Origin: a virus
Taxonomy: Duplodnaviria > Caudoviricetes
Virus record (IMG/VR): IMGVR_UViG_3300044675_003079
Coordinates: 1 to 53,580 of that record
Strand: one strand, 5' to 3'
DNA length: 53,580 nucleotides
The notes under the pieces were generated by a model. That model was not told the origin of the DNA and searched no databases. It was given only the letters and a program-made list of their open reading frames with translations. Each line of letters opens with the position of its first letter. Position 1 is the stretch's first letter. A program made the translations under genes and the position numbers. This document shows, one piece after another, positions 400-52,435 of the stretch.

Positions 400-605
400 G
401 CATTAGCCTTGATGAAATGCTGAAGGCAATCCACGAAGCATGGATGGACGTCAACGCCTCAAACGAAACGCTCGTGGCGCTCTGGGCAGAGTCCGATGGC
501 TACGGCGAGCAGGGCTACGTCCCTGAGCAGGGCTACGACTGGTCAGGCATCCGCGACTCAACCCCAGACGCGATTCGCGCCATGTGGAGAGTGCTCACCA
601 AGTGA
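396..605 (+). CDS. hypothetical protein
   Basis: GGAGGAG SD upstream; ATGA/GTGA coupling at both ends. Confidence 0.6.
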   Translation: MSISLDEMLKAIHEAWMDVNASNETLVALWAESDGYGEQGYVPEQGYDWSGIRDSTPDAIRAMWRVLTK

Positions 606-1276
606 CCGACGCAGGATGGCAACCCTCCCTATTCGCTACCGATGAAAGTGGGTACGAGGTTCGGGCGATTAGTGCGAAAGAAACCCACTGGTGGATGCTC
701 AACATCCACTACGCCCGACGCATCCCATCCATCACTTACGCATTCGGACTAATCAAAGACGGAGAACTGGTCGGGGTTGTCTCCTACGGAACACCAGCAT
801 CCAACACCCTGTGCAGAGGCATCTGTGGCGACGACTACGAAAAGACCGTCGTGGAACTTAACCGCTTAGTCCTTCGCGACAACCTGCCCAACGAGGCAAG
901 CCGTCTGGTCGGCAAGTCCCTCAAGATGCTCCCCACCCCACTCATCGTCGTTTCGTTCGCCGACACGAAGCAAGACCATCTCGGCATCGTTTATCAGGCG
1001 ACCAACTTCCTCTACACAGGGTTGAGTACCAAACGTAACGAATGGGCTGTCAAGGGGCTTGAGCACATTCACAGCAGAACCCTCAGCCACGGCAACACGC
1101 TGGAATCCATCAAAGAGAAGTACGGCGACGACTTCTACTACCGCGAGCGTTCTCGGAAGCACCGATACATCATCTTGCTCGGCAACAAGACCGAGAAGCG
1201 GAAAATGAGGTCTTTGCTTCGCTACGAGGTTCAGCCCTACCCGAAGGACGCGCCTGACAGCCCTGCTGTGGACTGA
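602..1276 (+). CDS. mom: Mom-family (GNAT-fold) DNA adenine-modification enzyme
   Basis: Motifs HY..R, VGVVSYG, ELNRL, NEASRLVGKSL, VSFAD..QDHLGIVYQATNFLYTG typical of phage Mu Mom homologues; likely GTG start at 602 overlapping the upstream stop (ORF track starts 584). Confidence 0.8.
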   Translation: MTDAGWQPSLFATDESGYEVRAISAKETHWWMLNIHYARRIPSITYAFGLIKDGELVGVVSYGTPASNTLCRGICGDDYEKTVVELNRLVLRDNLPNEASRLVGKSLKMLPTPLIVVSFADTKQDHLGIVYQATNFLYTGLSTKRNEWAVKGLEHIHSRTLSHGNTLESIKEKYGDDFYYRERSRKHRYIILLGNKTEKRKMRSLLRYEVQPYPKDAPDSPAVD

Positions 1277-1533: not shown

Positions 1534-1801
1534 CAACATTCCCGACCTCGGCAACCTTCTCTTGGTGCGTTGGCTTGACGCCCACAACTATCCAATCAAC
1601 TGGACGCTGATAGATGAAGTGGAACCCTACGTCGCTGAAGTAAAGTCAGTGGGTTGGGAAATCTATCGGGACGAAAAACAACTCGTTATGTCAGCAGACG
1701 TCGCTGAGGACATTGACGGCGAAACACAAATCAACGCGTTCTTTGCTATCCCCGTTGGATGCATCGTGAGCGAGGAAATATTGAGGCACAACAATGGCTG
1801 A
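1526..1801 (+). CDS. hypothetical phage protein
   Basis: LVRWLDAH...SVGW...IPVGCIV pattern common in small phage proteins; overlaps both neighbours. Confidence 0.65.
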   Translation: MADNIPDLGNLLLVRWLDAHNYPINWTLIDEVEPYVAEVKSVGWEIYRDEKQLVMSADVAEDIDGETQINAFFAIPVGCIVSEEILRHNNG

Positions 1802-3275
1802 GTATTCAGACCTACAAGAAATCGGTACATCAGGACTGCAACGCGTCGGTGGCTTTGTCATTGACGACTTTGTTGGCGACCTGCGTGGGCTTCGCGGCGC
1901 TAAAGTTTGGCGCGAAATGGCAGACAACGACCCTGTGGTCGGTGCGATGCTGTTCGCCATTGAGCGACTCATCCTGCAAATTGACTGGCGCATGGAGCCA
2001 TTCAAAGAGAACGCTGACGCGATGGTTAAAGACAAAGACCAAGAAGTCGCTGACTTTGTTGAAGAATGCATGAACGACATGAGCGAGTCGTGGGACGCAA
2101 CTCTGTCAGCGATTATGTCGTTCCTCACCTACGGTTACGCCTACTGCGAAATCGTCTACAAGAAACGCGTCACCCCAGACACAACCGACCCAACCAAGCG
2201 TTCTAACTACTCAGACGGCAAAGTCGGCTGGCGAAAACTTGCTCTCCGCGCCCAAGAAACAACATGGCAGTGGATATTTGACGAAGACGGTGGCATCAAA
2301 GGACTAGAGCAAATGGACGCGTCCGCTTCCAGCCACGGCGTTGTGATGATTCCAATTGAAAAGGCGCTCTTGTTCCGCACCTCAACTGCTCGCAACAACC
2401 CCGAAGGACGCTCACTGCTTCGCAACGCGTACCGCCCGTGGAAGTTCAAGAAAACGATTGAGGAAATTGAAGCCGTCGGTATTGAACGCGACCTCGCTGG
2501 ACTTCCCATCGCTTACGTCCCACCACAGTTGCTTTCATCTAACGCCACACCAGCAGAGGCTTCGGCGCGCGCAGGCATTGAACGTCTCATCCGTGGCATC
2601 AAACGAAACGAGAACGAAGGCATCGTGTTCCCACTTGCCTACGATGACCAAGGGCGGGAAATCTACAAACTGTCGTTGTTGTCCTCGGGCGGTTCACGCG
2701 CCTTTGACACCGACAAGATTGTGCAACGCTACGACCAGCGCATCACGATGACTGTCCTTGCTGACTTCATCCTGTTGGGGCATGAGAAGGTTGGCTCGTT
2801 TGCTTTGGGTTCCACAAAGGTTGACTTGTTCACCACAGCAATCGCACAAATCGCCCAATCCATCTGCGACGTTTTCAACCAGCACGCCATCCCTCGTTTG
2901 ATGAAGATGAACGGCATGGACGTGGCGCGCCGTCCGAAGTTGTCCTTCGGTGACATTCACCAAATCAACATCGCTGAACTTGCCGACTTCATTCAGAAGG
3001 CATCAGGCTCGGGCGCTCTTGTTGTGGATGAGGGACTGGACGAATACTTGCGTACCATTTCAGGCTTGCCTCCAAAGGTGGAGTCCGAAGAGGGAGTTGC
3101 CAATAACCCGAATGTTGCCCCTCCTCCTGCCCCTCAAGGTCAACCTCAGCCAGCACCAGTCGCCCCGTCAAGCGCCAAGACACCCCAAGAGGCGCCTGCA
3201 CAGCCAACCGACAAGTCACCAGCGCCTGAAGCCCAACCAGCGCCATCACAGGCTGAACCAGCAAAGACGAAGTAA
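1794..3275 (+). CDS. portal protein (DUF935/Mu gp29-like)
   Basis: 493 aa; NPEGRSLLRNAY..W..K, GIERDLAGLP, GSFALG motifs; Pro/Gln-rich C-tail; precedes the MuF gene. Confidence 0.88.
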   Translation: MAEYSDLQEIGTSGLQRVGGFVIDDFVGDLRGLRGAKVWREMADNDPVVGAMLFAIERLILQIDWRMEPFKENADAMVKDKDQEVADFVEECMNDMSESWDATLSAIMSFLTYGYAYCEIVYKKRVTPDTTDPTKRSNYSDGKVGWRKLALRAQETTWQWIFDEDGGIKGLEQMDASASSHGVVMIPIEKALLFRTSTARNNPEGRSLLRNAYRPWKFKKTIEEIEAVGIERDLAGLPIAYVPPQLLSSNATPAEASARAGIERLIRGIKRNENEGIVFPLAYDDQGREIYKLSLLSSGGSRAFDTDKIVQRYDQRITMTVLADFILLGHEKVGSFALGSTKVDLFTTAIAQIAQSICDVFNQHAIPRLMKMNGMDVARRPKLSFGDIHQINIAELADFIQKASGSGALVVDEGLDEYLRTISGLPPKVESEEGVANNPNVAPPPAPQGQPQPAPVAPSSAKTPQEAPAQPTDKSPAPEAQPAPSQAEPAKTK

Positions 3276-4255
3276 TGCCGTTTATACGCCGTTCGTCCCA
3301 GCCGGCGAAGCGCTCAACGGTCGCTAAAGCAGGTGAGTTGTCCTCAGTGGAGCAGGCTGTCGCGCGCGCGTACGCAGAGGCTGTTCGCCAGTTCCGTGAA
3401 GGAATTAACACGGCACGCGTCGCTGACGCCATCCGTCAGTCCGTTAACGCAAGCCTGAATGCCTTACCGACTGGTTCCATCATCGGTGACCTCCGACCAA
3501 TCGTTGACGCTTTGGTAAAAGAAATAATCAAAGCAGGACGCGCAGAAGCAGGAGCCAGCGCAGGTTTCAAGTTGCGTTTCAACGAGGCTGACCCTCGCGC
3601 CACTCAATGGGCGATGGAACGCGCAGGGCAACTTGTCAAAGGCGTGTCCGACGAGGTTGAGGACTTAATCAACGACGTCGTGACTCAGGCTGTTGACGGA
3701 AAGATAAGCGTCCGCGAAGCCCAACGTCGCCTTCAACGGACAGTTGGTTTGCATCCTCGCTGGCAACAAGCAGTCAACAACACCCACTCGCGTCTTGTGA
3801 AGGGGTTTATCGCTTCGGGGCTTTCCGAAGAGGACGCACAGGCACAGGCTCAACAAGCGTCGCAGAAATACCAAGACCGACTTGTTCGGGCGCGTTCAAA
3901 GAACATTGCACGCACCGAAATCGCTACAGCGCAGAACGAAGGACGATGGGTCGCTTGGCAACAAGCCGATGACGCAGGGCTGGTCAAACTCAACGACTCA
4001 GTAAAAGAGTGGCGCACAGCACCCGAGTTTGTTTCATCAAAGACAGTTGTCTGCACCATCTGCGCACCTCTTGATGGCAAACGCATACCAGTCAGCGAGA
4101 ACTTTCAGACAGGGTTACGCGCCCATCCTGACGGTATCAAAATGCCACCAGCGCATCCGTCTTGCCGTTGCAGGGCTGTCCTTGTCACTAAATCGTTTGC
4201 AGAGATTGAGGCTCAGGTTCTTGAAGCCCGACGTCAGGAAGCACAAAGGACGTGA
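3275..4255 (+). CDS. MuF/gpF-like head morphogenesis (minor head) protein
   Basis: IARTE...A.N.G, KEW, C.IC..LDG, PPAHPSCRC motifs; directly after portal. Confidence 0.9.
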   Translation: MPFIRRSSQPAKRSTVAKAGELSSVEQAVARAYAEAVRQFREGINTARVADAIRQSVNASLNALPTGSIIGDLRPIVDALVKEIIKAGRAEAGASAGFKLRFNEADPRATQWAMERAGQLVKGVSDEVEDLINDVVTQAVDGKISVREAQRRLQRTVGLHPRWQQAVNNTHSRLVKGFIASGLSEEDAQAQAQQASQKYQDRLVRARSKNIARTEIATAQNEGRWVAWQQADDAGLVKLNDSVKEWRTAPEFVSSKTVVCTICAPLDGKRIPVSENFQTGLRAHPDGIKMPPAHPSCRCRAVLVTKSFAEIEAQVLEARRQEAQRT

Positions 4256-4309: not shown

Positions 4310-4570
4310 ATGGCTGACAAACTAATCGCTGAAACACCAGAGGGTGACAAGTTGTACCAAGTGGGCGCTACAAGCGACTCTTCCATTATTGGCATCCCTC
4401 CAGTCCCTCAATCTCCTCTTGGGTTACCTGCCGAACCGACCGTGTTCGCTTATGGGTATGTCAAGTACGCCGACGGACGCACCTACAACGTTGACTACAT
4501 TCAGTCGTTCCTCAGTCGTGGCATCTTTGAACAAGTCGCCGAACTTGACCTCACAGTCACGGACAAGTGA
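4310..4570 (+). CDS. hypothetical protein at the start of the effector block
   Basis: AGGAG SD; 86 aa, acidic. Confidence 0.6.
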   Translation: MADKLIAETPEGDKLYQVGATSDSSIIGIPPVPQSPLGLPAEPTVFAYGYVKYADGRTYNVDYIQSFLSRGIFEQVAELDLTVTDK

Positions 4571-4573
4571 CTC

Positions 4574-7500
4574 ATGCCGTATTCCATCACACGAGGTAAA
4601 GGTTGCTCACCGTCTAAGCCGTGGGGCGTCGTAAAAGACTCCGATGGCACCGTGGTCGCCTGTCATGCGACAAAAGAAAGCGCCCTCGCGCAAATACGCG
4701 CCCTCTACAAGGTTGAACCAGCCCTTGCCAAAGCACGCGAACGCGTAGCAAAGCACCCGGGACACGCAGACCAGAAATCCCACGGTGGCAAGGGAACTCC
4801 TGCGCCCTCATCACCTGCTCGTCAAAAGAAAATGACTGGTCATTGGGGACACTCACGCACAGGCTCCACCAGCATCGCGACGGCTTCAAGAGACATGATG
4901 GGCATCCAATCAAGAGTTGATGTGGCTAGTAGAGGCTTGTCAGACACTGATTATAAGCAAGCACAAATCGCTCTGGACAACATAAGCAGTCGCCCTGCGA
5001 TGGTGACCGTTCCTTTGACGCACACCACTTCACGAATGCCAGAACTGGAAAAAGCGCAAACTGGCGATGTTATTCAACTTGGATTGACTGCAACGGCAAC
5101 ACAAGAGCGAGGCTCATACGGTCAAGGGTACGCCGAAGACCACATCAAGGAAATGCAGGTTCTTGTTTTCACAGGAACCAAACCAACCCACCTTTACTCG
5201 GGACGACGCAGTGCACCAGAGGAAGCAATTGTGGCTGGCGAGTTCAGGGTTGTCGGCAAAAAGACGGTTGATGTTCCTCGCACCACATTCAGAAATGGTG
5301 TGTATGAACCGTGGACGTCAAAAGCGACAGTTGTAGAACTTGAGCAGGTTTCAACCTTTGACACATCAACTAAAGCGTTTGTTCCTTTCAGTCAGCCAGT
5401 CGCCAAGCATCTCCCTCATCAGCACGACCAGCAGAAACACGGTACTGGCGGAACAAGCGCACCTGATTCTGCACCGAAGAAACGCAACAAGAAAGACATC
5501 GCCGGCGACGACCAACGCGCCTCTGAACTGTACGCGTCAGGTAAAACATGGGATGAGGTTGCTACCGAAATGGGCTACGCCAACGGTGGTGTCGCTCGGC
5601 GCGCCGGCAAACGCCATGAGGAACGCCAGAAGGACAAGCCGACTGACGATGGGGCTACAAAACCTAAGACCGAAGATGTGACGCCACCAACGCCAGTCAT
5701 CACCCCACCAGTCACGCCGACACCTCTGCCTGTTGACATTGTTAACCCACGCCCGATGACAGGTGAAGACCGAAGCCAGCAAACAGTCCCGACGGATGAC
5801 ATCAACGTTGCGCGCGAAACAGGACGCCCATACGCGCCGTTCACTGAGGAAGGACACTCACCAGAAGTTCGTAAAGCACAGGACAATTTACGCCAAGCAC
5901 AAAAAGACGCTGAAGACCACTATGAGCAACACTTCGGTGAAGAGTCACGTCGTCGCTCTGCTATTCACAAAGAAAAAGCAGAACAACATCAAAAGGCTGA
6001 AAAAGAATGGGAAGCACAAAATCCTCGTGCAAAGGGAGAGGATTATTATCCTTATTGGGAAAGAAGAGATAAAGCCCTCGCTGAAAGAGGACTGGTAAAA
6101 CCCAAAGACAACTCTGGTATTGACGCCATCATCAAAGACGGTCTTGTTGACAAAGTGTATGGCGAAACACAGTCTGCGCTTCACAAGAAAGCAGGTGACC
6201 AATGGGATGTTGTGCGACGGACAGTTCAAGTAGACACAGCCGAACACATACTTGGTGTCAAATCAGTGATGCGCCCACGCATGGAACCAGACTGGGACAC
6301 GCCAAGAACTGCTGAAAACCCACGCCCAATGAAGCAAGCCACCGAAGCCGACTATGACGCGCCCCATGTGCCGGGTGTTGGTTACCCACGAAAACCAGCG
6401 TTTGATTTAGTTTATGAACTTCCAGACGGCAAAGTTGTAAACCATCAAGAGTTGTTTCGTAACAGCGACTTTGACAGCCCTGACATTCAAATCATTAAAA
6501 AAACGGCTGAAAGTCGCTTAGCCAAAATCAGTCAAATCAACACTCGTCAACGCGCCATTGACGGCGATGGAGACGGCAAATTCAACGAAGCAATGAAAAC
6601 ACAACTGAGTCGGCAACAGGCAATTGTTGACAGTCCCAACACAAGAATTGTTATTCACGCACCCGTTTCTGCTGTCGGTGGAATTGTGACTTCTGGTCGG
6701 TTTAAGTCTCAACACGAAACTGGTCGTTCTAAAGGCTATAAAGGCAAAGAAGTCCGTGAGGGTTTTGAAGCGTCGTCAATGGGAACCGTGTTAGGAGACG
6801 ACAAAACAAAAGCACCTATCTATGGCGCTGTCCACGTTGGTGGCGTTCAAGACCCACACGCCTTTTCTTTAGGTCAATATGGTGACGTTGGGTTTGTTCT
6901 TCGTCGCGACACACATGAACGCGCCATGTTCACAGACGGTGACTCACTAAACCTTTGTTATGAAGCGTCACCGATGACTGGAGTACAGACACGGTTTAAC
7001 GGTCATAGCGTTAACGGAGGTGTGGACGCTGTGTCTTCATGGAGACGCCAAGACGATGCAACTTTCCCAGAGAGCCTCCAAAAGAAACCCAAAGCCATAG
7101 CAGGTGGTTATCGCGAAGCACAGGTTCTTGGAGGTGTCAACCTTGCCGACATTGAGTATGTGACCGTTCCTGCTGGCACAAAGTTCCCCGCGGCGTCAAG
7201 ACGCAAACTGGAGAAGGCTGGCATTCCAGTCATTGAGTATGACCGAGGCGCGTTTACTCCGTTGAAGGGAGTTGACGATGTCGGTGAACTTCAATTCACA
7301 CCAGCCAAAGAAGGAGGCATATGGACTCCTCTTCCCGAACCAACCGCGAAGCGCATCGGTGTTGTGGTGGACATTTTCAAGCACCTCGCCGGCAAACACG
7401 ACCAGCGTTCCCACTCAGGCAAATCCTCCAGCCACGGTGGGTATCAACTGAACGAACCAAAGAACCCTCAAGCACCAGCAGGGAAATACGGTGAGGACTC

Positions 7501-8149
7501 CGTTCAAGCCGCGAAAGCAGAACGCACACGCATCGCCGAGATTGAACCAGCGATGACTCGCGAGATGATTGACATCGCCAACACACATGGGGCAAAGATG
7601 GAGGGGCTTGACCACCGTCTAAAGTCCGACGAGTCCCTTGCGCGAAAGGTAGACGCCGAGAAGGACACTGACTTCGGTGGCGACGCCACCAAAACAGCAC
7701 AATCCATGTCTGACGTTGTTCGCTACACAATGACCTACCCCGAAGCGGAGTACGCAGGAAACGTGCAAGCCACCATTACCGACATGGAAGCGCGAGGCTA
7801 CAAAGCACGCGTAAAGAACTATTGGGAAATGGACGACCCTTATCAAGGCATCAACGTTGCTTTGACTCACCCTTCTGGTATCAAAGTAGAGTTGCAGTTC
7901 CACACCCCACGTTCGGTCAAGGTGAAGGAAACAGTCCACGGTTTGCTGGACAAGTTCCGAGCCGAACCCAATGCGCGCACTCGGTTTGGGTTGTGGGACA
8001 GAATGGTGCGTGTCTCCAATCAGATACCTGTGCCACCACCGCCTGAGCAACTCCTCAGCATCGGCGACCTGAAGAGTCAAACGTTCAAAATGCGTGAAAT
8101 GCGTGAAATGGTAAAGCAATTGATGCAGGAGATTAACAATGGCGTCTGA
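4574..8149 (+). CDS. 1191-aa polyvalent protein: leader, tag, ART-like domain, tag, HTH/linker/DUF3626-like domain, tag, RelA/SpoT (Apk/Tas1-like) synthetase
   Basis: Three KH..Q..H tags (K60, K278, K936); RFKSQHETG/PIYGA/YREAQVLGGV motifs; RLKS..SLARK/DVVRYT/YQGIN/ELQFHT motifs. Confidence 0.8.
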   Translation: MPYSITRGKGCSPSKPWGVVKDSDGTVVACHATKESALAQIRALYKVEPALAKARERVAKHPGHADQKSHGGKGTPAPSSPARQKKMTGHWGHSRTGSTSIATASRDMMGIQSRVDVASRGLSDTDYKQAQIALDNISSRPAMVTVPLTHTTSRMPELEKAQTGDVIQLGLTATATQERGSYGQGYAEDHIKEMQVLVFTGTKPTHLYSGRRSAPEEAIVAGEFRVVGKKTVDVPRTTFRNGVYEPWTSKATVVELEQVSTFDTSTKAFVPFSQPVAKHLPHQHDQQKHGTGGTSAPDSAPKKRNKKDIAGDDQRASELYASGKTWDEVATEMGYANGGVARRAGKRHEERQKDKPTDDGATKPKTEDVTPPTPVITPPVTPTPLPVDIVNPRPMTGEDRSQQTVPTDDINVARETGRPYAPFTEEGHSPEVRKAQDNLRQAQKDAEDHYEQHFGEESRRRSAIHKEKAEQHQKAEKEWEAQNPRAKGEDYYPYWERRDKALAERGLVKPKDNSGIDAIIKDGLVDKVYGETQSALHKKAGDQWDVVRRTVQVDTAEHILGVKSVMRPRMEPDWDTPRTAENPRPMKQATEADYDAPHVPGVGYPRKPAFDLVYELPDGKVVNHQELFRNSDFDSPDIQIIKKTAESRLAKISQINTRQRAIDGDGDGKFNEAMKTQLSRQQAIVDSPNTRIVIHAPVSAVGGIVTSGRFKSQHETGRSKGYKGKEVREGFEASSMGTVLGDDKTKAPIYGAVHVGGVQDPHAFSLGQYGDVGFVLRRDTHERAMFTDGDSLNLCYEASPMTGVQTRFNGHSVNGGVDAVSSWRRQDDATFPESLQKKPKAIAGGYREAQVLGGVNLADIEYVTVPAGTKFPAASRRKLEKAGIPVIEYDRGAFTPLKGVDDVGELQFTPAKEGGIWTPLPEPTAKRIGVVVDIFKHLAGKHDQRSHSGKSSSHGGYQLNEPKNPQAPAGKYGEDSVQAAKAERTRIAEIEPAMTREMIDIANTHGAKMEGLDHRLKSDESLARKVDAEKDTDFGGDATKTAQSMSDVVRYTMTYPEAEYAGNVQATITDMEARGYKARVKNYWEMDDPYQGINVALTHPSGIKVELQFHTPRSVKVKETVHGLLDKFRAEPNARTRFGLWDRMVRVSNQIPVPPPPEQLLSIGDLKSQTFKMREMREMVKQLMQEINNGV

Positions 8150-9164
8150 CCTGACAACTGGTGTGTTCTTCTACCTTCGTGTGCTAGATGAAAAGCCTCT
8201 GGCTTTGTTCCGTTTGGATGTGGACACCGACAGGAAAGAAATCAACGAGACCGTCTGGGATGGTTCCAGTTGGCAAGAAACCAATCGCCTGACGATGTAC
8301 ATCGGTTACGGCTCTACCGAGGTTGAGCAGGTACTAGAACGCGACGCCACACTCGCTTTCCCCGACGCATTCAGAGACAAAGCACCAAACTTCAAGCGCA
8401 TCATCCCGAGCGTCATGTCAAAGCATCTACAGCATGACCAAAAGACCCACGGACGTGGCGGTGGACGCGCCTCAACTCTAAATCCAGACAATCACCTCAG
8501 CGCCCCATTCGGTGCGCAAATAGGAGATGATGGAATTTTCGTGGTTGATGAGGACGGAATGGTTGGTTTCCTTGAAGAGCAAACTTCTGCTTATGAAAAC
8601 GTCACAAAAGCCGAAGGGGAGTCTGTAATCGCTTATCAATCCGCAATGTATTACGAACAAATAAATGGTGGTTTACGTCAGGAAATGGCAATGGGTGAAA
8701 CCGATATGCTTGATGATGAAACACGGAAAATCATTGATGACGTTGACTTTGCGATTGATAAAAGTGGATTTAGTGAAGACATTGTTGTTTTCAGAGGTCT
8801 AGATGACGAACAAGGAATGATTTACGACATGAAAGTTGGCGACTCTTTCACCGATGCTGGATTTCAATCAACAACTCTTAATCCTATTGTGGCTACTTCT
8901 TTTGCTATGGGGGATAACTTTTCAGGTAACCCTGTTATCCTGCGCATTAAAGTTCCTGCTGAAAGCCCTGCCCTTGCGGCAGACATGGCGAGCAACCGAG
9001 CAGTCGGACAAAAGTTACAACCCAATTCTGAGGACGCGTCTATGGTTGGGTTTAGCATTGGAGCAGAAGTGATATTGCCTCGCATGACGATGTACGAAGT
9101 TACAGGCACATCAATTGTTGATGGTGTGTCGCTTCTTGATGTGACGGTGGTGCGCAATGATTGA
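8139..9164 (+). CDS. putative immunity-like N-domain + tag + VIP2/C3-type ADP-ribosyltransferase
   Basis: Y..IN..LR, VFRG, GDSFTDAGFQSTT, VILRIKVP, AEVILPR motifs of the ADPrib_exo_Tox/VIP2 fold. Confidence 0.8.
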   Translation: MASDLTTGVFFYLRVLDEKPLALFRLDVDTDRKEINETVWDGSSWQETNRLTMYIGYGSTEVEQVLERDATLAFPDAFRDKAPNFKRIIPSVMSKHLQHDQKTHGRGGGRASTLNPDNHLSAPFGAQIGDDGIFVVDEDGMVGFLEEQTSAYENVTKAEGESVIAYQSAMYYEQINGGLRQEMAMGETDMLDDETRKIIDDVDFAIDKSGFSEDIVVFRGLDDEQGMIYDMKVGDSFTDAGFQSTTLNPIVATSFAMGDNFSGNPVILRIKVPAESPALAADMASNRAVGQKLQPNSEDASMVGFSIGAEVILPRMTMYEVTGTSIVDGVSLLDVTVVRND

Positions 9165-10896
9165 TGTGTCTAGATTTGCTGGCAAGGCGAGCGACTACAA
9201 GCGTTCTACCCAAGTGTCTCAAACAACCACAGTTACCGAAAAGCATCTCGCCGGCAAGCACGACCAACGCACCCACGGTGGTGGTGGAGGCGTTAGCGCC
9301 CCTCGTGACACGGCTCACGCCAAACAGAAACAAGCGTGGGAACTTCACGAGCAAGGTAAAACGTGGGAGGAAGTCGCGAAAGAGGCTGGCTACGCGAATG
9401 GTGGCGCCGCGCGTCTGGCTGGCAAAGCGCACGAGAAACGTGTGAAAGCGAAAGGCGAAGGCGCTGAAGTTCCGAAGCCTACTGAGGTTGTCACACCAAA
9501 ACCCAAAACCGACAAAGAAGGCGCTAAAGCAATCAAAGACGCGCAGGCTCTTGTTGACAAAGCAACTGGTGGTCGCACCGTTGCTGATGTCATGGCGGAT
9601 GAACGCAACAGCCAAACGCGAACAAAAGAACCATCCGCAAAAGAGTTAGAGGTTACAGAGGCTGTTATTAAATCGGGTGCAATTCTTCGTGGTGAGGTGG
9701 ACAGACGGCGTGCGTCGCTCGGTAAAGATGTGGTTGAAACTGCGAAATCCGAAGTTGAAGTGCTCAAAAAGGATAAAGCATTGACGCAAAAGCGTGTTGA
9801 TGAAGTGGATGCTCAAAGAGCAACGCACCGCGAGAAAATTGATGCAGAGGTAATGGCAAGTCCCAGATTAGATGTTGAGTTGAATGACAGAATAGACCTA
9901 CAAATATCCAAAACGAAAAGTGAACGGTTGATTGACGGATTGGATGCTGACAGGGCTGGAGTAATTAAAGAGATGCGCGAATATAACCGTCTCTTTGGCA
10001 AACGGGGCGAAGTTGTAAATGCGGACGAGCGTGACGCTTGGAGAAAGCAACGAGCAAAAGAGCGATTCCCTGATGACAAAAAGGCTCAAGAGGAGTATGC
10101 GGCGGTTTTAACAGAGGGAAGGTGGGGTGCTCAGAAAGTTGAGCGTTCTTTGGAAATGTCTGGTGGCAAAATGAAAGTGCTAAAGGATGAGGAAAACAGA
10201 ATAAACGGTTTGTTTTCGGAAGTGGCTAACGCTAACCATGCTGTCGCAAAGGAAATCAGGAACAGGGAAAGATTGATTAAGGATGGCGGAGTAACTCCCG
10301 AACAGAACGCTGAAATCATCAGGTCAGTCTTGATTGATTCTGGTCGCACCATGACAGACAAGCCAGCACAAACGTTGATTGGAAGCAAACCAGCAGTGGC
10401 GGAGTTACGGGCTGAGTTAGTTAAAATCCCTGATGAGTTGTGGAACACTGGTGCTTTCCCACGAATGAATGTAAACGCGACTTCGGGGCGTGGTCATTGG
10501 AGTTCGTCTAAAGCAGAAATTAAGACCGATGGTAAAAAAGGAACTGGGCGACGCGCATCTACTCTTTTGCATGAGGCGACTCACGCTGTTGAGGACATGA
10601 ACTATCAAATTCCACAATTAGAGTTTGTGATGTCGCATCGTCGCGCAAAAGGACAACAACCACAAAAACTTAACGACATCCGTAAGGGTGGAGGATATAG
10701 AAAAGACGAAGTTGCTATTGAGGATGCATGGGCAAACCCATATTCAGGCAAAGTTTACAATGGCGGAGGTCGTCGTAACAATTGGGAGATAATGACGATG
10801 GGCATAGAATCCCTCTATAAACGTCAAGACTATCCGCACGACATTGCCGATGAAGACCACTTAAACTTTGTTATGGGAGTTTTGGCTTACGCATGA
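9157..10896 (+). CDS. tag + HTH + coiled coil + zincin (HExxH) metallopeptidase
   Basis: STLLHEATHAVE and downstream WEIMTMGIE; HTH paralogous to the one in ORF 4574. Confidence 0.75.
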   Translation: MIDVSRFAGKASDYKRSTQVSQTTTVTEKHLAGKHDQRTHGGGGGVSAPRDTAHAKQKQAWELHEQGKTWEEVAKEAGYANGGAARLAGKAHEKRVKAKGEGAEVPKPTEVVTPKPKTDKEGAKAIKDAQALVDKATGGRTVADVMADERNSQTRTKEPSAKELEVTEAVIKSGAILRGEVDRRRASLGKDVVETAKSEVEVLKKDKALTQKRVDEVDAQRATHREKIDAEVMASPRLDVELNDRIDLQISKTKSERLIDGLDADRAGVIKEMREYNRLFGKRGEVVNADERDAWRKQRAKERFPDDKKAQEEYAAVLTEGRWGAQKVERSLEMSGGKMKVLKDEENRINGLFSEVANANHAVAKEIRNRERLIKDGGVTPEQNAEIIRSVLIDSGRTMTDKPAQTLIGSKPAVAELRAELVKIPDELWNTGAFPRMNVNATSGRGHWSSSKAEIKTDGKKGTGRRASTLLHEATHAVEDMNYQIPQLEFVMSHRRAKGQQPQKLNDIRKGGGYRKDEVAIEDAWANPYSGKVYNGGGRRNNWEIMTMGIESLYKRQDYPHDIADEDHLNFVMGVLAYA

Positions 10897-11201
10897 AAAT
10901 TGACGGATACTCAGACCAGCGTGAAGCGCACGTCATGGAGGAAGACGACAAGTGGGTTTTGTACCCCGACGAGTTTGCCATCTTTGCTTCAACCTACACA
11001 TTCCCAGATGAAGTCCCTGTTGCTGTGCCGGGCTTTGTCGCGCCAGACATTAATTCTAAAGAACCTCACATTGTCGTTGCGACGTGGAAAGAAATGATGA
11101 GGGACTATTTGTCGGTTGATGAACCACCGTATGAATTTGAAGTGACTGGCGTTGAAGAGTCCGAGGCTGAAGCCGACGACTCCGAAGGCATCGTCTACTA
11201 G
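10893..11201 (+). CDS. small acidic protein, candidate immunity/partner of the upstream peptidase
   Basis: ATGA-coupled to ORF 9157; very D/E-rich, 102 aa. Confidence 0.55.
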   Translation: MKIDGYSDQREAHVMEEDDKWVLYPDEFAIFASTYTFPDEVPVAVPGFVAPDINSKEPHIVVATWKEMMRDYLSVDEPPYEFEVTGVEESEAEADDSEGIVY

Positions 11202-11240: not shown

Positions 11241-12323
11241 ATGCCAACCAAGCCTGAACCAGCAACCGAAACGGAAGATGCGTCTGAGTACACCGTCTAC
11301 AACGTCACGCTCCGTCAGAAGGTCATCTACGAAGCAACTGAACAAATCGTAGAGCGCTTCGGTCGGTTTGACCGTGGCAACGGCGCTGACGGTGCTCACT
11401 ACATGGACGGCGACGACAACCCTTTCGTCGCCGAAGGAATGAACTGCACCAACTGTGTCGCGTTCCGAGGTGGGCGTGCCTGCGAATGGGTAGAGGGCGA
11501 CATTTCCCCTAACGGACTCTGCAAGTTTTGGATTATCCCCGAGGACTTAATGAGCCACGCGATGGTCAAAGCATCTGACTCTTTCAGCCCTCCACAGGGC
11601 GTTCAGGATGAGGCTAAGAAAGCAATGAAGTGGATTGCCGACGGTCACGCTGGAGATGGTTTCACGGCTGTCGGTTCCGCACGCGCGCGCGACCTTTCCA
11701 ACGGTAGCAACGTGTCACTTGAGACTGTCAAACGGATGCGTTCCTATCTTGCACGCCATGAGGTGGACAAGCAGGGCAAAGGTTGGAGTCCCGGCGAGGA
11801 CGGTTTCCCGTCGGCTGGTCGTGTCGCATGGGCGGCGTGGGGCGGAGACGCTGGACGCACTTGGGCGAACGATGTGTTGGCAGGAATTGACCGCGTCAAC
11901 AAGGCTGTCACGCTGGACGTCATGGAGGAGCAGAAGTTCACGCTCGCCCCGTGGTACATCCCGAACAAGTACGACGCCCACGACGAATGGACAGACCCCG
12001 AGGAGTTGCAGAAAGCACTCTGGGATTACGTCAAGTCAGGCGACCGAGCCATCCGTCTCCAGCACAACACCGAAGTGGTCGCTGGCGAGTGGGTTGAAGC
12101 GATGACGATGCCTTTCCCCGTAAACGTCCCGATGCGCAAGTCCGATGGACGTATTGAGCAGGTTGAATACCCCTCTGGGACGGTCTTTTTGGGCGTCAAA
12201 TGGGACGATTGGGCGTGGGACATGGTCAAGAACGGCGAAATCACTGGTTATTCCATTGGTGGCTCTGCCGAGCGACTTGAGGTAGGTTTAGACAACGGCA
12301 TGACCGTGATAGGAGAAGCATGA
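11241..12323 (+). CDS. multidomain prohead protease: HiPIP-like Cys domain + conserved phage domain + XkdF-like (S78_2-type) protease
   Basis: C-terminal D.H.E...PEELQKA, RLQH, W..VKNGEITGYSIGG; N-terminal CxxC-x7-C-x12-C; position in the head module. Confidence 0.8.
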   Translation: MPTKPEPATETEDASEYTVYNVTLRQKVIYEATEQIVERFGRFDRGNGADGAHYMDGDDNPFVAEGMNCTNCVAFRGGRACEWVEGDISPNGLCKFWIIPEDLMSHAMVKASDSFSPPQGVQDEAKKAMKWIADGHAGDGFTAVGSARARDLSNGSNVSLETVKRMRSYLARHEVDKQGKGWSPGEDGFPSAGRVAWAAWGGDAGRTWANDVLAGIDRVNKAVTLDVMEEQKFTLAPWYIPNKYDAHDEWTDPEELQKALWDYVKSGDRAIRLQHNTEVVAGEWVEAMTMPFPVNVPMRKSDGRIEQVEYPSGTVFLGVKWDDWAWDMVKNGEITGYSIGGSAERLEVGLDNGMTVIGEA

Positions 12324-12997
12324 ACGAAATGACACCAGCAGAACGCGTGACCCTCAACGCGCTACGCGCAACAGCCCTCGCCAAAATGAGCGATGCCGAC
12401 TTCGCAAACCTTGAAACCGAAGTAGCCAGCAAAGGACTACGCAACCTTGATGGTTGGTTCGGTGCGCAAGTCTCCAAAGCAGTAGAGCAAGTCCTCAAGC
12501 ACCCGGGTCATGCGAATCAGGCAAGTCACGGTGGAGGCAAAGGCAAAGGTGGCTCCCCATCCTCTGACATTGCAGGACGCGCAAATTCTAGACGAGAAGA
12601 CGAAGCAGGCGACAAGGTTGGCTACGGTGCAAATCAAGCCGCCGAGAATATGGGCGCTCACTCAAATGAAATGAACCAAAAGATTTATGGCAAAGATGGT
12701 GCTTCCAAAAAGATGACAGACATTGACGAGGTTGAGTTGATGGGAATTAACGACTCACTCAGTTCGGCGGCTGAAAGCCTCACCCTTTTGTCATCTGGAA
12801 AACCTCAAAAACAGCACGACCAAATCATTAGTGTTCGTCGCCAGTTAAGAGAAACGCGTAGCGACGCCGTAAGACAACTAAGTCCTGCAGTGCGCAATAT
12901 CGCAGTTCGCGCAATTGATAAGCACGTCGCCGAAGTTGACAATTTGTTGAGTCTCCATCGTGAAGCGTGGACTGGCGTCGGTGGAACGTTTGAATAG
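12320..12997 (+). CDS. tag-bearing head-associated protein, unknown helical cargo
   Basis: KHPGHANQASHG at K60; N-domain similar to ORF 13006. Confidence 0.75.
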   Translation: MNEMTPAERVTLNALRATALAKMSDADFANLETEVASKGLRNLDGWFGAQVSKAVEQVLKHPGHANQASHGGGKGKGGSPSSDIAGRANSRREDEAGDKVGYGANQAAENMGAHSNEMNQKIYGKDGASKKMTDIDEVELMGINDSLSSAAESLTLLSSGKPQKQHDQIISVRRQLRETRSDAVRQLSPAVRNIAVRAIDKHVAEVDNLLSLHREAWTGVGGTFE

Positions 12998-15108: not shown

Positions 15109-16065
15109 ATGCCTCAGCCAACTAGCAACCAAGTCCATGTAGACGCCATTCTGACCAACATTTCGGTCGCGTATATGCAGAGGCAGGAAAACTTTATTGC
15201 CTCTCGCGTATTCCCGATTGTTCCTGTTGAGAAGCAGTCGGACAAGTATTTCACATACACCAAGAACGACTGGTTCCGTGACGAAGCACAGCGTCGCGCG
15301 GACGGTACCGAATCAGCAGGTGGCGGTTACAACATCTCCACTGGCACCTATCAGGCAGACGTTTACGCCTTCCACAAGGACATCGGTGACCAGACTCGCG
15401 CAAACGCAGACGCACCAATCAACGTTGACCGCGAAGCCGCAGAGTTCGTAACAAGCCGTTTGATGCTCAAGATGGAGACCGAGTTCGTTAACAACTTCTT
15501 CTCAGCGAGCGTTTGGGCTAACGAAGTCTCACCATCGGGTAACGATGAGTGGAGCGATTACACCAACAGCGACCCAATGGACGACATTGAAACCGCTAAG
15601 GCGGCAATTCTTGGAACCACAGGTTTTGAACCAAACACACTCGTACTTGGTTACGACGTGTTCCGTGTTCTCAAGAACCACCCAGACCTTGTTGACCGTC
15701 TCAAGTACACATCCAGCAACACAATCACATCAGACATGATGGCTCGTTTGTTTGACGTTGACCGTGTTCTTGTGGCTAAGGCTGTCAAGGCAACGAACAA
15801 CGAAGGTGGCACAGGCGCTTACGCTTTCACACACGGCAAGCACGCCCTCCTCTGCTACTCGGCTCCATCGCCGGGCTTGCTCCAACCATCTGCTGGTTAC
15901 GTCATGTCATGGACAGGCGTTTCTGCAGGACTTGGTGCAACCATTGGTTCCAGCCGACTTCGTATGGACAGCCTTCGCGCTGACCGTATTGAGGCTGAAG
16001 TTGCGTTTGACATGAAAGTCATCGCGACCGACCTCGGTTACTTCTGGAACGGCGTAGTCGCCTAA
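15109..16065 (+). CDS. major capsid protein
   Basis: 318 aa; HVDAILTNISVAY...FIASRVFPIVPV, PNTLVLG motifs of lambda gpE-like capsids; strong SD. Confidence 0.88.
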   Translation: MPQPTSNQVHVDAILTNISVAYMQRQENFIASRVFPIVPVEKQSDKYFTYTKNDWFRDEAQRRADGTESAGGGYNISTGTYQADVYAFHKDIGDQTRANADAPINVDREAAEFVTSRLMLKMETEFVNNFFSASVWANEVSPSGNDEWSDYTNSDPMDDIETAKAAILGTTGFEPNTLVLGYDVFRVLKNHPDLVDRLKYTSSNTITSDMMARLFDVDRVLVAKAVKATNNEGGTGAYAFTHGKHALLCYSAPSPGLLQPSAGYVMSWTGVSAGLGATIGSSRLRMDSLRADRIEAEVAFDMKVIATDLGYFWNGVVA

Positions 16066-49516: not shown

Positions 49517-50713
49517 ATGTCCGAACGTGTCCTAGTGACCTCGCAACTGGTCAAAACAGAACAACTCAAAACCCACCCACGGAACCCACGCAGAGGCAAC
49601 GTTCCTGCAATTGCAGACAGCCTCACGCACCACGGGCAGTACCGACCCATCGTCGTCCAGAAGTCCACCAACTTCATCCTCGCCGGCAACCACACATTTG
49701 AAGCCGCCAAGTCCCTCGGATGGGACACAGTTGCCTGCACCCTGCTAGACGTTGACGACCAAACAGCCGAACGCATCCTCATCGCCGACAACCGAACATC
49801 CGACTTGGCGTCCTACGACAACAACGCCCTGTCAGCCCTTTTGCACTCCCTACCTGACCTAGATGGCACAGGCTTCGGACAATTAGACCTTGACCAACTG
49901 GACGGTGTCTTTGACGAAGCAGACGAACCAGACCCCAAACCAACACCCGAACCAAAACCCAAAGCCACCATCCAAATCGGCATCCACGAACTCTGGGTAG
50001 ACGAAACCCCACTCAACGTCTGGCGTTCACGCTTCACTGAAATGGAAAAGCGCGCCGCTACCGAACTCATCCGTTCCCTTCTTGGCTTCCCCGACATCAT
50101 CAAACCCAACGCCAAAGACCGCCACTCACCCGAAAACGTCACAGCCCAAGTGGAAACAGTCCCCATCAAAACCCTCATCCCATTTGATGGCAACGCACGA
50201 GAAGGCGACATCGGAGCAATCGTTGAGTCACTCAAACACCTCGGACAATACCGACCAGTGGTGGCACGACGCGAAACAAACCAAATCCTCGTCGGCAACC
50301 ACACATGGCGCGCCGCTAAACACCTCGGATGGAAAAACATCGCCGTCGCATGGGTTGACGTAGACGACGAACAAGCGACACGCATCGTCCTAGTGGACAA
50401 CCGAACCTCAGACATTTCAGGCTACGACGACTCCACCCTGTTGGCGCTCCTTACAAACGTTTCATCTTTGGAAGGCACAGGCTTCACCCCAGAAGACCTA
50501 GACGACCTACTCAACGACATCAAAACAGACCGCGACCACAAACCCACACCAACCAAAGACGTCAGATGCCGTGTTGACAAGTGGACGTTCAAAGTTAGCC
50601 CTACTGAATTCTCAGCATGGTCAACCAAGCGCACAGACGCTGAAACCCCAAACCACATAGCAACCAGCCTCGGACTCCCCGACGGCTCATGGACAACGGA
50701 GAACCCACAATGA
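49517..50713 (+). CDS. protein with two tandem ParB/Srx-like domains
   Basis: N.R.G....I..SL...GQYRP.V...IL.GNHT..AAK.LGW....DNRTSD occurs twice. Confidence 0.8.
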   Translation: MSERVLVTSQLVKTEQLKTHPRNPRRGNVPAIADSLTHHGQYRPIVVQKSTNFILAGNHTFEAAKSLGWDTVACTLLDVDDQTAERILIADNRTSDLASYDNNALSALLHSLPDLDGTGFGQLDLDQLDGVFDEADEPDPKPTPEPKPKATIQIGIHELWVDETPLNVWRSRFTEMEKRAATELIRSLLGFPDIIKPNAKDRHSPENVTAQVETVPIKTLIPFDGNAREGDIGAIVESLKHLGQYRPVVARRETNQILVGNHTWRAAKHLGWKNIAVAWVDVDDEQATRIVLVDNRTSDISGYDDSTLLALLTNVSSLEGTGFTPEDLDDLLNDIKTDRDHKPTPTKDVRCRVDKWTFKVSPTEFSAWSTKRTDAETPNHIATSLGLPDGSWTTENPQ

Positions 50714-50982: not shown

Positions 50983-51212
50983 ACGAACGATGCCCTAAAT
51001 GCGACCAACTGCCTAACGATTGTGTCTGCTACCCAAGTCTCGCCCAATGGCTCGGTTTCGGACGCCAACGAGGATGGATAAGCCCAATCGTCTGCGACAC
51101 ACACGGAGGCGTACCAATGTCCGACGAAGAACAAGCCGAATTTGACGCAGGCAACGACCCCTGCATCTCCGTCATCCGTTTCTACACAAAACAAGAAAGC
51201 AAACCAGCATGA
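50967..51212 (+). CDS. hypothetical Cys-rich protein
   Basis: WL..G...GW.S..VC.TH.G.P....E..EF..G.DPC pattern. Confidence 0.6.
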   Translation: MDTQLNERCPKCDQLPNDCVCYPSLAQWLGFGRQRGWISPIVCDTHGGVPMSDEEQAEFDAGNDPCISVIRFYTKQESKPA

Positions 51213-52435
51213 ACATCGCCAAAGACCTCCAAAGCCTCACCGTCCCCATTGACAACCTCACCGCGCTAGACAAAAACGCGCGCCGAGGCGACGTAGACGC
51301 CGTAGCGAAGTCGTACCAACAGTTCGGACAACGCAAACCAATCGTCGCGAAACGAAACAAAGCCGTCAAAGGTGGCAAACCAACAGGCATGGTCATCGCA
51401 GGCAACCACCAACTCCTCGCCGCCAAACAACTCGGATGGACAGAAATCGCTGTTGTCTTCACCGACGACGACGACAAAACAGCACGCGCGTTCGCACTCG
51501 CAGACAACCGAACACATGACCTCGGTAACTACGACAACGTCCTCCTTGCCGAATTACTAGAAGACCTCAAAATGGACGACGACCTGTTCGGCGCGTCAGG
51601 GTACACACCCAAAGACCTCAAAAACCTGCTGTCCGACAACGCCAAGAAAGACAAGTACGACGGCAAAACCGACCCCGACGAAATCCCCGAAACACCGACC
51701 AAAGCCACATCCAAAGCAGGCAACGTCTACAAACTCGGCAACCACCGCCTCTTCGTCGGCGACTCCTGCGACCCAACGTCATACGAGAAACTGCTAGAAG
51801 GAGGCAAAGCACAGATGTGTTTCACCGACCCTCCCTACAACGTGAACTACAAGTCAGCCAACGACAACGTCACCAAAAAGCAAATCATGAACGACAACCT
51901 CGGCGACGACTTCTACGCCTTCCTTCACGACGCCTGCCAAAACATCGTCAACTTCACCGACGGAGGGTGCTACATCGCAATGTCGTCAAGCGAACTGCAC
52001 ACACTTCAAAAGGCGTGGATTGCTGTAGGCGGTCACTGGTCAACCTTTATCATCTGGGCAAAAAACACCTTCACGCTCGGACGCTCCGACTATCACCGCC
52101 AGTACGAACCAATCCTCTACGGATGGAACAAGAAAACAGGACACAAATGGCATGGCGACCGTTCACAAGGCGACGTGTGGTTCGTAGACAAACCTCGCAA
52201 GTCCGACCTTCACCCCACCATGAAGCCCGTTGAGTTGGTAGAGAAAGCCATCCACAACTCCAGCCAAATCGGAGAACTAGTCCTAGACCCCTTCGGTGGT
52301 TCAGGCACAACCCTCATCGCTTGCGAACGCACAGGACGCCACGCACGCATGATTGAACTAGACCCACGCTTCGCAGACGTCATCATCAAGCGTTGGGAAG
52401 ACCACACAGGGCTGACAGCCGAAAAGGTGTCGTAA
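51209..52435 (+). CDS. ParB-like N-domain + N6/N4 DNA methyltransferase
   Basis: FTDPPY, HPTMKP, DPFGGSGTT motifs; ParB-like N-terminus. Confidence 0.9.
   Translation: MNIAKDLQSLTVPIDNLTALDKNARRGDVDAVAKSYQQFGQRKPIVAKRNKAVKGGKPTGMVIAGNHQLLAAKQLGWTEIAVVFTDDDDKTARAFALADNRTHDLGNYDNVLLAELLEDLKMDDDLFGASGYTPKDLKNLLSDNAKKDKYDGKTDPDEIPETPTKATSKAGNVYKLGNHRLFVGDSCDPTSYEKLLEGGKAQMCFTDPPYNVNYKSANDNVTKKQIMNDNLGDDFYAFLHDACQNIVNFTDGGCYIAMSSSELHTLQKAWIAVGGHWSTFIIWAKNTFTLGRSDYHRQYEPILYGWNKKTGHKWHGDRSQGDVWFVDKPRKSDLHPTMKPVELVEKAIHNSSQIGELVLDPFGGSGTTLIACERTGRHARMIELDPRFADVIIKRWEDHTGLTAEKVS

Follow-up and report, generated by a model that had tools for sequence, protein, structure and literature searches.

The question raised by this locus is how a phage might carry a dangerous enzyme safely among its own head proteins. 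The DNA analyzed here (the window) is the whole IMG/VR record IMGVR_UViG_3300044675_003079, 53,580 bases in length and about 93% complete by estimate, which is a near-complete siphovirus genome with all long open reading frames (ORFs) on the plus strand. In its head module, a large protein, P0001, ends in a putative alarmone synthetase, and the overlapping ORF, P0002, opens with a small domain that is followed by a peptide tag and an ADP-ribosyltransferase (ART). An earlier reading based on the letters alone (hereafter, the sequence-only reading) had proposed here an Apk/Tas1-like toxin whose candidate antidote is the cleavable leader of the next effector. The overall explanation preferred in the present work, to which a probability of about 0.6 is assigned, is that of a packaged alarmone toxin with a Tis1/IapK-type antidote fused to the next cargo, the tags being cut inside the procapsid. 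The protein carrying the synthetase and the motifs concerned are as follows:

4574–8149, plus strand: P0001, a 1191-aa polyvalent head protein between the MuF gene and the ART gene, ordered as a 58-aa leader, tag, module A, tag, module B, tag and synthetase module
7439–8146, plus strand: residues 956–1191 of P0001, the Apk/SaEAS-like module with a predicted RelA/SpoT-type pyrophosphokinase fold
7616–7648, plus strand: RLKSDESLARK, residues 1015–1025
7712–7729, plus strand: DVVRYT, residues 1047–1052
7811–7825, plus strand: VKNYW, residues 1080–1084
7841–7855, plus strand: YQGIN, residues 1090–1094
7889–7906, plus strand: ELQFHT, residues 1106–1111

Translation and a coordinate check placed all five motifs, on which the synthetase had originally been recognized, in the last module of ORF 4574–8149, within residues 1015–1111. 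Among PDB sequences, the module matched SaEAS (8vx3; E-value = 1.8 × 10−15 over 183 residues) and, weakly, Tas1 (6ox6_A; E-value = 0.34). A tblastn search matched 128 phage records (best E-value = 9 × 10−19 at ~31% identity), including the C-termini of MuF proteins (Apk2 genes) of Streptococcus pneumoniae, Pasteurella and Mannheimia phages, the organisms from which Apk2 has been characterised according to PMC12226406, and 85 relatives of 140–448 aa, nearly all without a recorded Pfam match, were found in the protein collection. The module itself gave no match to Pfam RelA_SpoT even at E ≤ 10, where only chance-level rows appeared. The AlphaFold2 (AF2) model of the module (predicted local distance difference test, pLDDT, 95.8) was closest in a Foldseek search to 8vx3 (E-value = 9 × 10−11, TM-score 0.73/0.84), with Tas1 at 1.6 × 10−5; there were 19 matches at E ≤ 0.001, and among the matches listed all were RSH/SAS synthetases (SaEAS, Tas1, CapRel, RelP, SAS1, Rel and SpoT). 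In an alignment of 38 relatives, the K, D, R-Y-T, G-x-N and E-x-Q-x-H-T columns were invariant or nearly so, and D1047 was aligned with a position that is Ala in the 8vx3 chain, which is a D121A variant according to a figure legend in PMC12691689. As to the signatures given for Apk enzymes in PMC12226406 (syn2 RYT, syn3 GxN and syn4 YH), RYT, GxN and the aromatic-H pair are present, with F instead of Y in syn4, as in SaEAS. Thus, profile and model comparisons agree in identifying the last module, almost certainly, as a toxin-type RelA/SpoT-fold pyrophosphokinase of the Apk/SaEAS clade, as had been proposed. By the definition of the family, Apk toxins make (p)ppApp exclusively from ATP; SaEAS prefers guanylate acceptors and also makes (p)ppApp according to PMC12691689. 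Since SaEAS makes both alarmones with the same motifs, the product of the window enzyme cannot be called from its motifs.

The protein encoded by the next ORF consists of the following parts:

8139–9164, plus strand: P0002, 341 aa, with an immunity-like N-domain, a linker, a tag and an ADP-ribosyltransferase
8160–8372, plus strand: about residues 8–78 of P0002, the folded core of the Tis1/IapK-like domain (AF2 pLDDT 84.6)
8586–9119, plus strand: residues 150–327 of P0002, the ART cargo (ADPrib_exo_Tox, PF03496; E-value = 4.5 × 10−17)

This ORF overlaps ORF 4574–8149 by 11 nt and has GGAG 8 nt before its ATG. Its first 94 residues (isoelectric point 4.6, 16 D+E, 11 F/W/Y) bear out the aromatic and acidic domain of about 90 aa that had been noticed ahead of the tag and the ART; in the AF2 model, the core forms a small beta sheet and two helices, with residues 8–76 folded at good confidence, and residues 79–94 form a low-confidence linker. 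A HMMER scan of 1.84 × 10^9 representative proteins with this domain gave 20 matches, 16 of which were kept. P0018, P0020, P0021 and P0025, repeat proteins with many short matching stretches, were dropped as spurious (P0021 alone was inspected). In 10 of the 16, the domain is N-terminal and the tag comes next in every case, followed by an ART, a domain with weak similarity to GNAT (E-value = 0.006, below the Pfam cut-off) or a zincin protein like ORF 9157 (P0023). The other six are stand-alone proteins of 70–103 aa, which stop where the linker to the tag starts. No tblastn match to the domain was found at E ≤ 1 in 50,697 phage records, and Pfam returned only chance-level rows at E ≤ 10; in BFVD, the model matched uncharacterised phage proteins only, the best being the 84%-identical N-terminus of a 645-aa protein.

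A link to known immunity proteins emerged from iterated profiles. A profile built from viral matches only, without any IapK, scored an IapK-family protein at an E-value of 4.8 × 10−5, and the S. pneumoniae IapK reached 4.5 × 10−5 one round later (both computed in a set of 9,105 sequences). When a 41-sequence alignment was compared with IapK by hhalign, 59 of 69 residues were aligned end to end (probability 52, E-value = 1.4 × 10−4), and a shallow 7-sequence profile gave a probability of 1.25. These comparisons suggest that residues 8–78 of ORF 8139 are remotely homologous to IapK. In the structural search with VIA-align, Tis1 (6ox6_B) ranked second of 48,161 chains (Z = 4.7, root-mean-square deviation 3.2, 63 of 76 residues aligned), so that, at a weak Z score, the modelled domain may resemble Tis1 in fold. 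Rows with a weak WDGxGW lectin repeat in the PDB profile search were taken as chance.

The sequence-only reading had proposed that a complex of the two proteins be modelled. The complex of the N-domain and the synthetase was predicted with a score of 0.65, compared with 0.02 for the best of three controls; 58 of 80 solved complexes, but only 2 of 110 mismatched pairs, attained this mark. At least 75% of the contacts were common to the runs, and the partner pLDDT was at least 82. The domain is placed at the active site, over D1047, the KNYW strand, YQGIN and ELQ, which form the catalytic face, and the predicted interface includes D1047, K1081, Y1090, G1092, N1094, E1106 and Q1108 of the enzyme and W40, R50 and G58 of the domain.

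Of 254 viral contigs with a synthetase relative, the best 80 were used to survey the linkage of the domain to the synthetase; they form 50 clusters at 90% synthetase identity, and all their 9,105 ORFs were searched with the domain profile. The possibility that homologues of the domain are not linked to synthetase genes, which the sequence-only reading had named as part of its refutation, did not hold, and the linkage was found to be tight: the domain stands directly downstream of the synthetase in 47 loci with the first profile (E ≤ 0.001) and in 59 of 80 loci after three rounds, corresponding to 40 of 50 clusters. Each match begins 17–178 nt past the synthetase domain; three loci have an additional module in between, with the domain match just past that ORF. 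Elsewhere among the 9,105 ORFs the profile found no match, with one minus-strand ORF (L055) set aside. In L055, a partial profile match (E-value = 7 × 10−5) fell in the C-terminus of a convergent 347-aa ORF abutting the end of the synthetase gene; it was removed before the iteration and may represent chance or a further fused form.

The closest relatives show which parts of the locus are exchanged. In L002 and L003, which are near-identical contigs, the synthetase and the N-domain are 97–99% identical to those of the window, and the cargo after the tag is replaced by a non-ART protein; L002 additionally shows divergence in the module preceding the synthetase. L004 encodes the synthetase on its own, as a 301-aa protein composed of leader, tag and synthetase, and the N-domain there stands at the head of a 1553-aa polyvalent protein whose start falls on the synthetase stop codon. 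In L005, the N-domain opens a GNAT-like cargo. A search for related loci with P0023 found none, and a metagenome scan yielded one locus. In the window and in all four of these loci, the domain ORF begins at the synthetase stop, despite the differing cargo and upstream sequence. The cargo and the upstream modules are thus swapped while the pair is kept, and it follows that the domain goes with the synthetase and not with the cargo.

Taken together, the linkage, the suggested remote homology to IapK, the possible Tis1-like fold at a weak Z score and the predicted binding at the active site speak for the proposed immunity domain. Residues 8–78 of ORF 8139 probably represent a Tis1/IapK-family immunity domain, which, judging from profiles and models, would lie over the acceptor-nucleotide side of the active site and keep the enzyme off in the producer.

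The peptide tag (motif KH[LP]..H.[DN]Q..HGG) and the two candidate processing enzymes are located as follows:

4751–4795, plus strand: tag 1, KHPGHADQKSHGGKG, after the 58-aa leader of P0001
5405–5452, plus strand: tag 2, KHLPHQHDQQKHGTGG, between modules A and B
7379–7420, plus strand: tag 3, KHLAGKHDQRSHSG, directly before the synthetase module
8421–8465, plus strand: tag 4, KHLQHDQKTHGRGGG, between the immunity-like domain and the ART
9241–9291, plus strand: tag 5, after the 27-aa N-terminus of P0003
Starting at nt 12497 and 13183, plus strand: tags in the scaffold-like proteins
9157–10896, plus strand: P0003, 579 aa, with a 27-aa N-terminus, tag 5, a helix-turn-helix-like stretch, a coiled coil and a C-terminal zincin motif
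10570–10584, plus strand: the HEATH zincin motif near the C-terminus of P0003
11241–12323, plus strand: prohead protease, Peptidase_S78_2, XkdF type (E-value = 1.5 × 10−15), the candidate enzyme for the tags

The seven copies in the window occur only in plus-strand head-gene frames: three in ORF 4574 and one each in ORFs 8139 and 9157 and in both scaffold-like proteins. Since the codons differ between copies, it is the peptide that is conserved. The tags mark every module joint, and tag 4 is the junction where cargo is exchanged in relatives. In the 80 loci, a tag of the same kind precedes the synthetase in 15, and 79 copies were found on the plus (coding) strand versus 1 on the minus strand. 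Within windows of ±4 kb, tags were commoner in loci where an XkdF-type protease was in view (16 of 20) than in those without one (13 of 60), a result that is only suggestive because the loci are related. A tblastn search with the tag and the helix-turn-helix stretch yielded three weak Gordonia phage rows only, all outside the tag. By inference, the tags are maturation cleavage sites at about even odds. The zincin of P0003 is possibly an alternative processing enzyme to the XkdF-type protease; a zincin protease has been proposed in PMC5512222 to process polyvalent proteins. It should be noted that the prohead protease has a 210-aa N-terminal extension (11241–11870) with a Cys-rich stretch, and that this extension matches phrog_2859, a family that also covers the synthetase module.

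In other phages, the domain is built into the head proteins in further ways. The domain is fused directly to the N-terminus of Peptidase_S78_2 (XkdF type), above the Pfam cut-off, in L015:4666–5574, L021:4664–5347, L043:4633–5382 and L049:733–1392, and the same protease motif follows the domain in seven further loci (L020, L022, L023, L044, L046, L048 and relatives); these domain–protease fusions account for 8 of 50 clusters. In L050:3788–8293 and L054:3761–7048, polyvalent proteins of ~1100–1500 aa, a tag, the synthetase, the domain and a tag follow one another in one reading frame, which is the order of the window without the stop codon. In L053:2–2362, the synthetase and the domain are likewise in frame, with no tag in the stretch after the domain. 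These variants speak for the antidote being sent to the same places as head-internal proteins.

According to the mechanism proposed here, the head module would encode several cargo proteins in a row, located inside the virion, with the tag linking their modules. The immunity domain, encoded by a translationally coupled ORF, would sit over the active site of the synthetase on its acceptor-nucleotide side and hold the enzyme off in the producing cell, where replication and DNA packaging need ATP. As the N-terminal part of the ART cargo, the antidote would be made 1:1 with the toxin and would travel with the other head proteins. Inside the procapsid, the XkdF-type protease would cut at the tags and set the synthetase, the antidote and the ART free from one another, a step for which the chances appear evenly balanced. 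Less firmly, the toxin might be parted from its antidote as the proteins unfold to leave via the tail. A more far-reaching version, which is tentative and rather doubtful, would regard the antidote as a "safety pin" deliberately tethered to a procapsid-bound protein, whether the next cargo, the prohead protease or the toxin itself, so that the toxin would be silenced 1:1 in the producer, escorted into the head and armed only by tag proteolysis and unfolding at ejection. If this were true, the KHL..HDQ..HGG tag would be a processing and sorting code for a whole class of modular head cargo.

Two elements of the sequence-only reading had to be changed in the light of this arrangement. Its daisy chain, in which the antidote of one effector serves as the leader of the next, holds for this one joint, where the domain leads the ART protein, but not as a general rule, as in ORF 9157 only 27 residues precede the tag and a comparable domain is absent. 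The idea that the protease separates the antidote from the synthetase was abandoned: the two are already different polypeptides, and cleavage at the tag would part the antidote from the ART.

Several observations weigh against the explanation preferred here. The 80 loci are interrelated, and their counts represent non-independent events. No domain match was found in 21 of the 80 loci (10 of 50 clusters), two of these clusters having too little downstream DNA; in most of the remainder, the synthetase is part of a long ORF from other lineages. The Z score of 4.7 for Tis1 is below the reliable level of the tool and is tied with unrelated chains (Med18/20 at 4.9); Foldseek found nothing in the PDB at E ≤ 0.001 with the N-domain model, and sequence profiles of the domain did not retrieve Tis1 from the PDB sequences. 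With the iterated profile, the Pasteurella IapK reached no better than E-values of 0.012–0.12. The complex prediction used our own alignments, and its score may draw on the solved Tas1–Tis1 complex; since that pair is already solved, the prediction shows likeness rather than binding. In L050, L053 and L054, the synthetase and the domain stay covalently joined, and tag cleavage alone therefore cannot free the toxin there. Finally, a literature search for the tag core found no paper carrying the motif.

Among the alternatives, the one that survives best, although it is unlikely, is that the domain binds the synthetase while the tag stays uncut: P0002 would remain whole, the ART would be tethered in a non-covalent two-enzyme cargo complex, relief would come from unfolding at ejection, and the tag would be a docking or metal-binding peptide. 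Cleavage is indeed inferred rather than observed, the in-frame fusions of synthetase and domain show that the pair can stay covalent, and the tag is His-rich (three His and one Asp). However, no module junction lacks a tag, two scaffold-like proteins carry tags as well, the tags co-occur with the XkdF-type protease, and the stand-alone forms of the domain end at the start of the linker to the tag.

It is improbable that the N-domain is a mere packaging leader or adaptor, bringing the next protein into the procapsid with no inhibition of the synthetase. Some N-terminal piece does precede the first tag in every tagged protein, and the domain sits before many different partners. When modules are shuffled, however, it stays with the synthetase and not with the cargo, and 25 of 50 clusters have it as a small protein of its own, which leaves it nothing to lead. 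In addition, the profiles link it to IapK, which is described in PMC12226406 as a tested inhibitor, its predicted interface covers the catalytic motifs, and P0003 manages with 27 residues before its tag. The notion that the domain is an intramolecular inhibitor or chaperone of the ART, unrelated to the synthetase, draws on their lying in the same polypeptide and is very improbable, as the 97–99% identical domain precedes non-ART cargo in L002 and L003 with the upstream synthetase kept, other copies precede the zincin protein (P0023) and the prohead protease, and the domain stands alone next to synthetases in 38 loci.

The explanation by a packaged toxin with a fused antidote can be set beside known systems, of which the Apk2–IapK–Aph1 modules of temperate phages (S. 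pneumoniae, Bacteroides caccae, Mannheimia and Pasteurella) are the first. As described in PMC10083569 and PMC12226406, these share with the window a head-module synthetase with RYT, GxN and aromatic-H and a small Tis1-like binder directly downstream with a stop/start overlap; in Streptococcus phage phiARI0462, a 69-aa ORF follows MuF-Apk2 at the IapK position. They differ in that the synthetase of the window ends a 1191-aa tagged polyvalent protein, P0001, which has no MuF match, MuF being a separate gene, and in that the binder is fused via the tag to an ART. Tis1 and IapK proteins are free-standing (69–76 aa), whereas here the domain is N-terminal in a 341-aa protein. Neither an Aph1-type HD_4 hydrolase nor a tyrosine or serine recombinase (integrase) was found in the 93%-complete genome, the controls giving HD_4 matches in 10 of 14 genomes and integrase matches in the control genomes; the presence of Aph1 is variable in the Apk2 family according to PMC10083569.

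In the Tas1 (Apk1)–Tis1 pair of the Pseudomonas aeruginosa type VI secretion system (PDB 6OX6), the toxin has the same fold (E-value = 1.6 × 10−5), and its 76-aa immunity chain was the second-best structural match; Tis1 is described in PMC10083569 as acting over the active site, as is predicted here from the model. In contrast, P0001 has no PAAR Pfam match, its gene lies in a phage head module, and the head rather than the secretion system would deliver the toxin; the sequence likeness of the toxins is weak (E-value = 0.34), and the immunity protein was not found by sequence. The closest solved relative, the exported synthetase SaEAS of Streptomyces albidoflavus (PDB 8VX3), has VRYT, GxN and QFHT in common with the window but differs in having, according to PMC12691689, a signal peptide and no immunity gene. 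The finding is a variant of the known Apk–Tis1/IapK toxin–immunity pair, being neither a strict Apk2, as there is no MuF fusion and no Aph1, nor an Apk1, as there is no PAAR.

Polyvalent proteins of phages and conjugative elements (Iyer et al. 2017, PMC5512222) are similar in that RelA/SpoT, ART and other effector domains are strung together in head-associated proteins with a zincin protease; neither the KHL..HDQ..HGG tag nor an immunity domain in the string is described in the accessible part of that paper. In the window, the XkdF serine protease is an equally good processing candidate as the zincin. In phage T4, the internal proteins and Alt, which is an ART, carry capsid-targeting leaders, which the gp21 prohead protease cuts off at a short consensus sequence. 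Packaged enzymes with N-terminal pieces are common to T4 and the window, whereas the site sequence differs, the protease is unrelated, and no toxin–immunity pair is known to be so arranged in T4.

The remaining features of the window are as follows:

584–1276, plus strand: Mom-family protein
1794–3275, plus strand: portal
3275–4255, plus strand: MuF (PF04233, Pfam), as its own gene
4310–4570, plus strand: 86-aa ORF between MuF and the polyvalent protein, without a family match
5441–7378, plus strand: module B of P0001, with a weak match to DUF3626 (E-value = 0.00035, below the Pfam cut-off)
10893–11201, plus strand: 102-aa acidic ORF overlapping the stop of P0003
12320–12997 and 13006–13854, plus strand: two scaffold-like proteins, each with a tag ~59 residues from its start
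15109–16065, plus strand: major capsid protein, lambda-E type

Tape measure and tail genes come after the head module. The position of the 86-aa ORF is kept in L002 and L004. Module B diverges in its N-terminal part when the window is compared with L002, and it occurs in two copies in the 1553-aa protein of L004. The 102-aa acidic ORF is also kept in L002, L003 and L005 and could be a partner of P0003. Together with two ParB-like/DNA methyltransferase proteins (49517–50713 and 51209–52435), the Mom-family protein suggests heavy DNA modification. No tRNA genes were found in the window, and a megablast search with the region 4574–10896 gave no match in the 50,697 phage records.

In the accessible text of PMC10083569, the carriage of Apk2 toxins in the virion, their injection and the use of the immunity proteins to the phage are left open. 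The building of the immunity domain into the row of head cargo in three ways across phages suggests that it serves safe production and packaging and not the protection of lysogens; no integrase was found in the phage genome. This offers a possible answer to the question of how a dangerous enzyme might be safely carried by a phage. The tag may serve both as a site for the maturation protease and as a recombination joint for the swapping of cargo, and a family of at least 254 viral contigs, with a toxin–antidote pair whose interface is predicted, is available for study.

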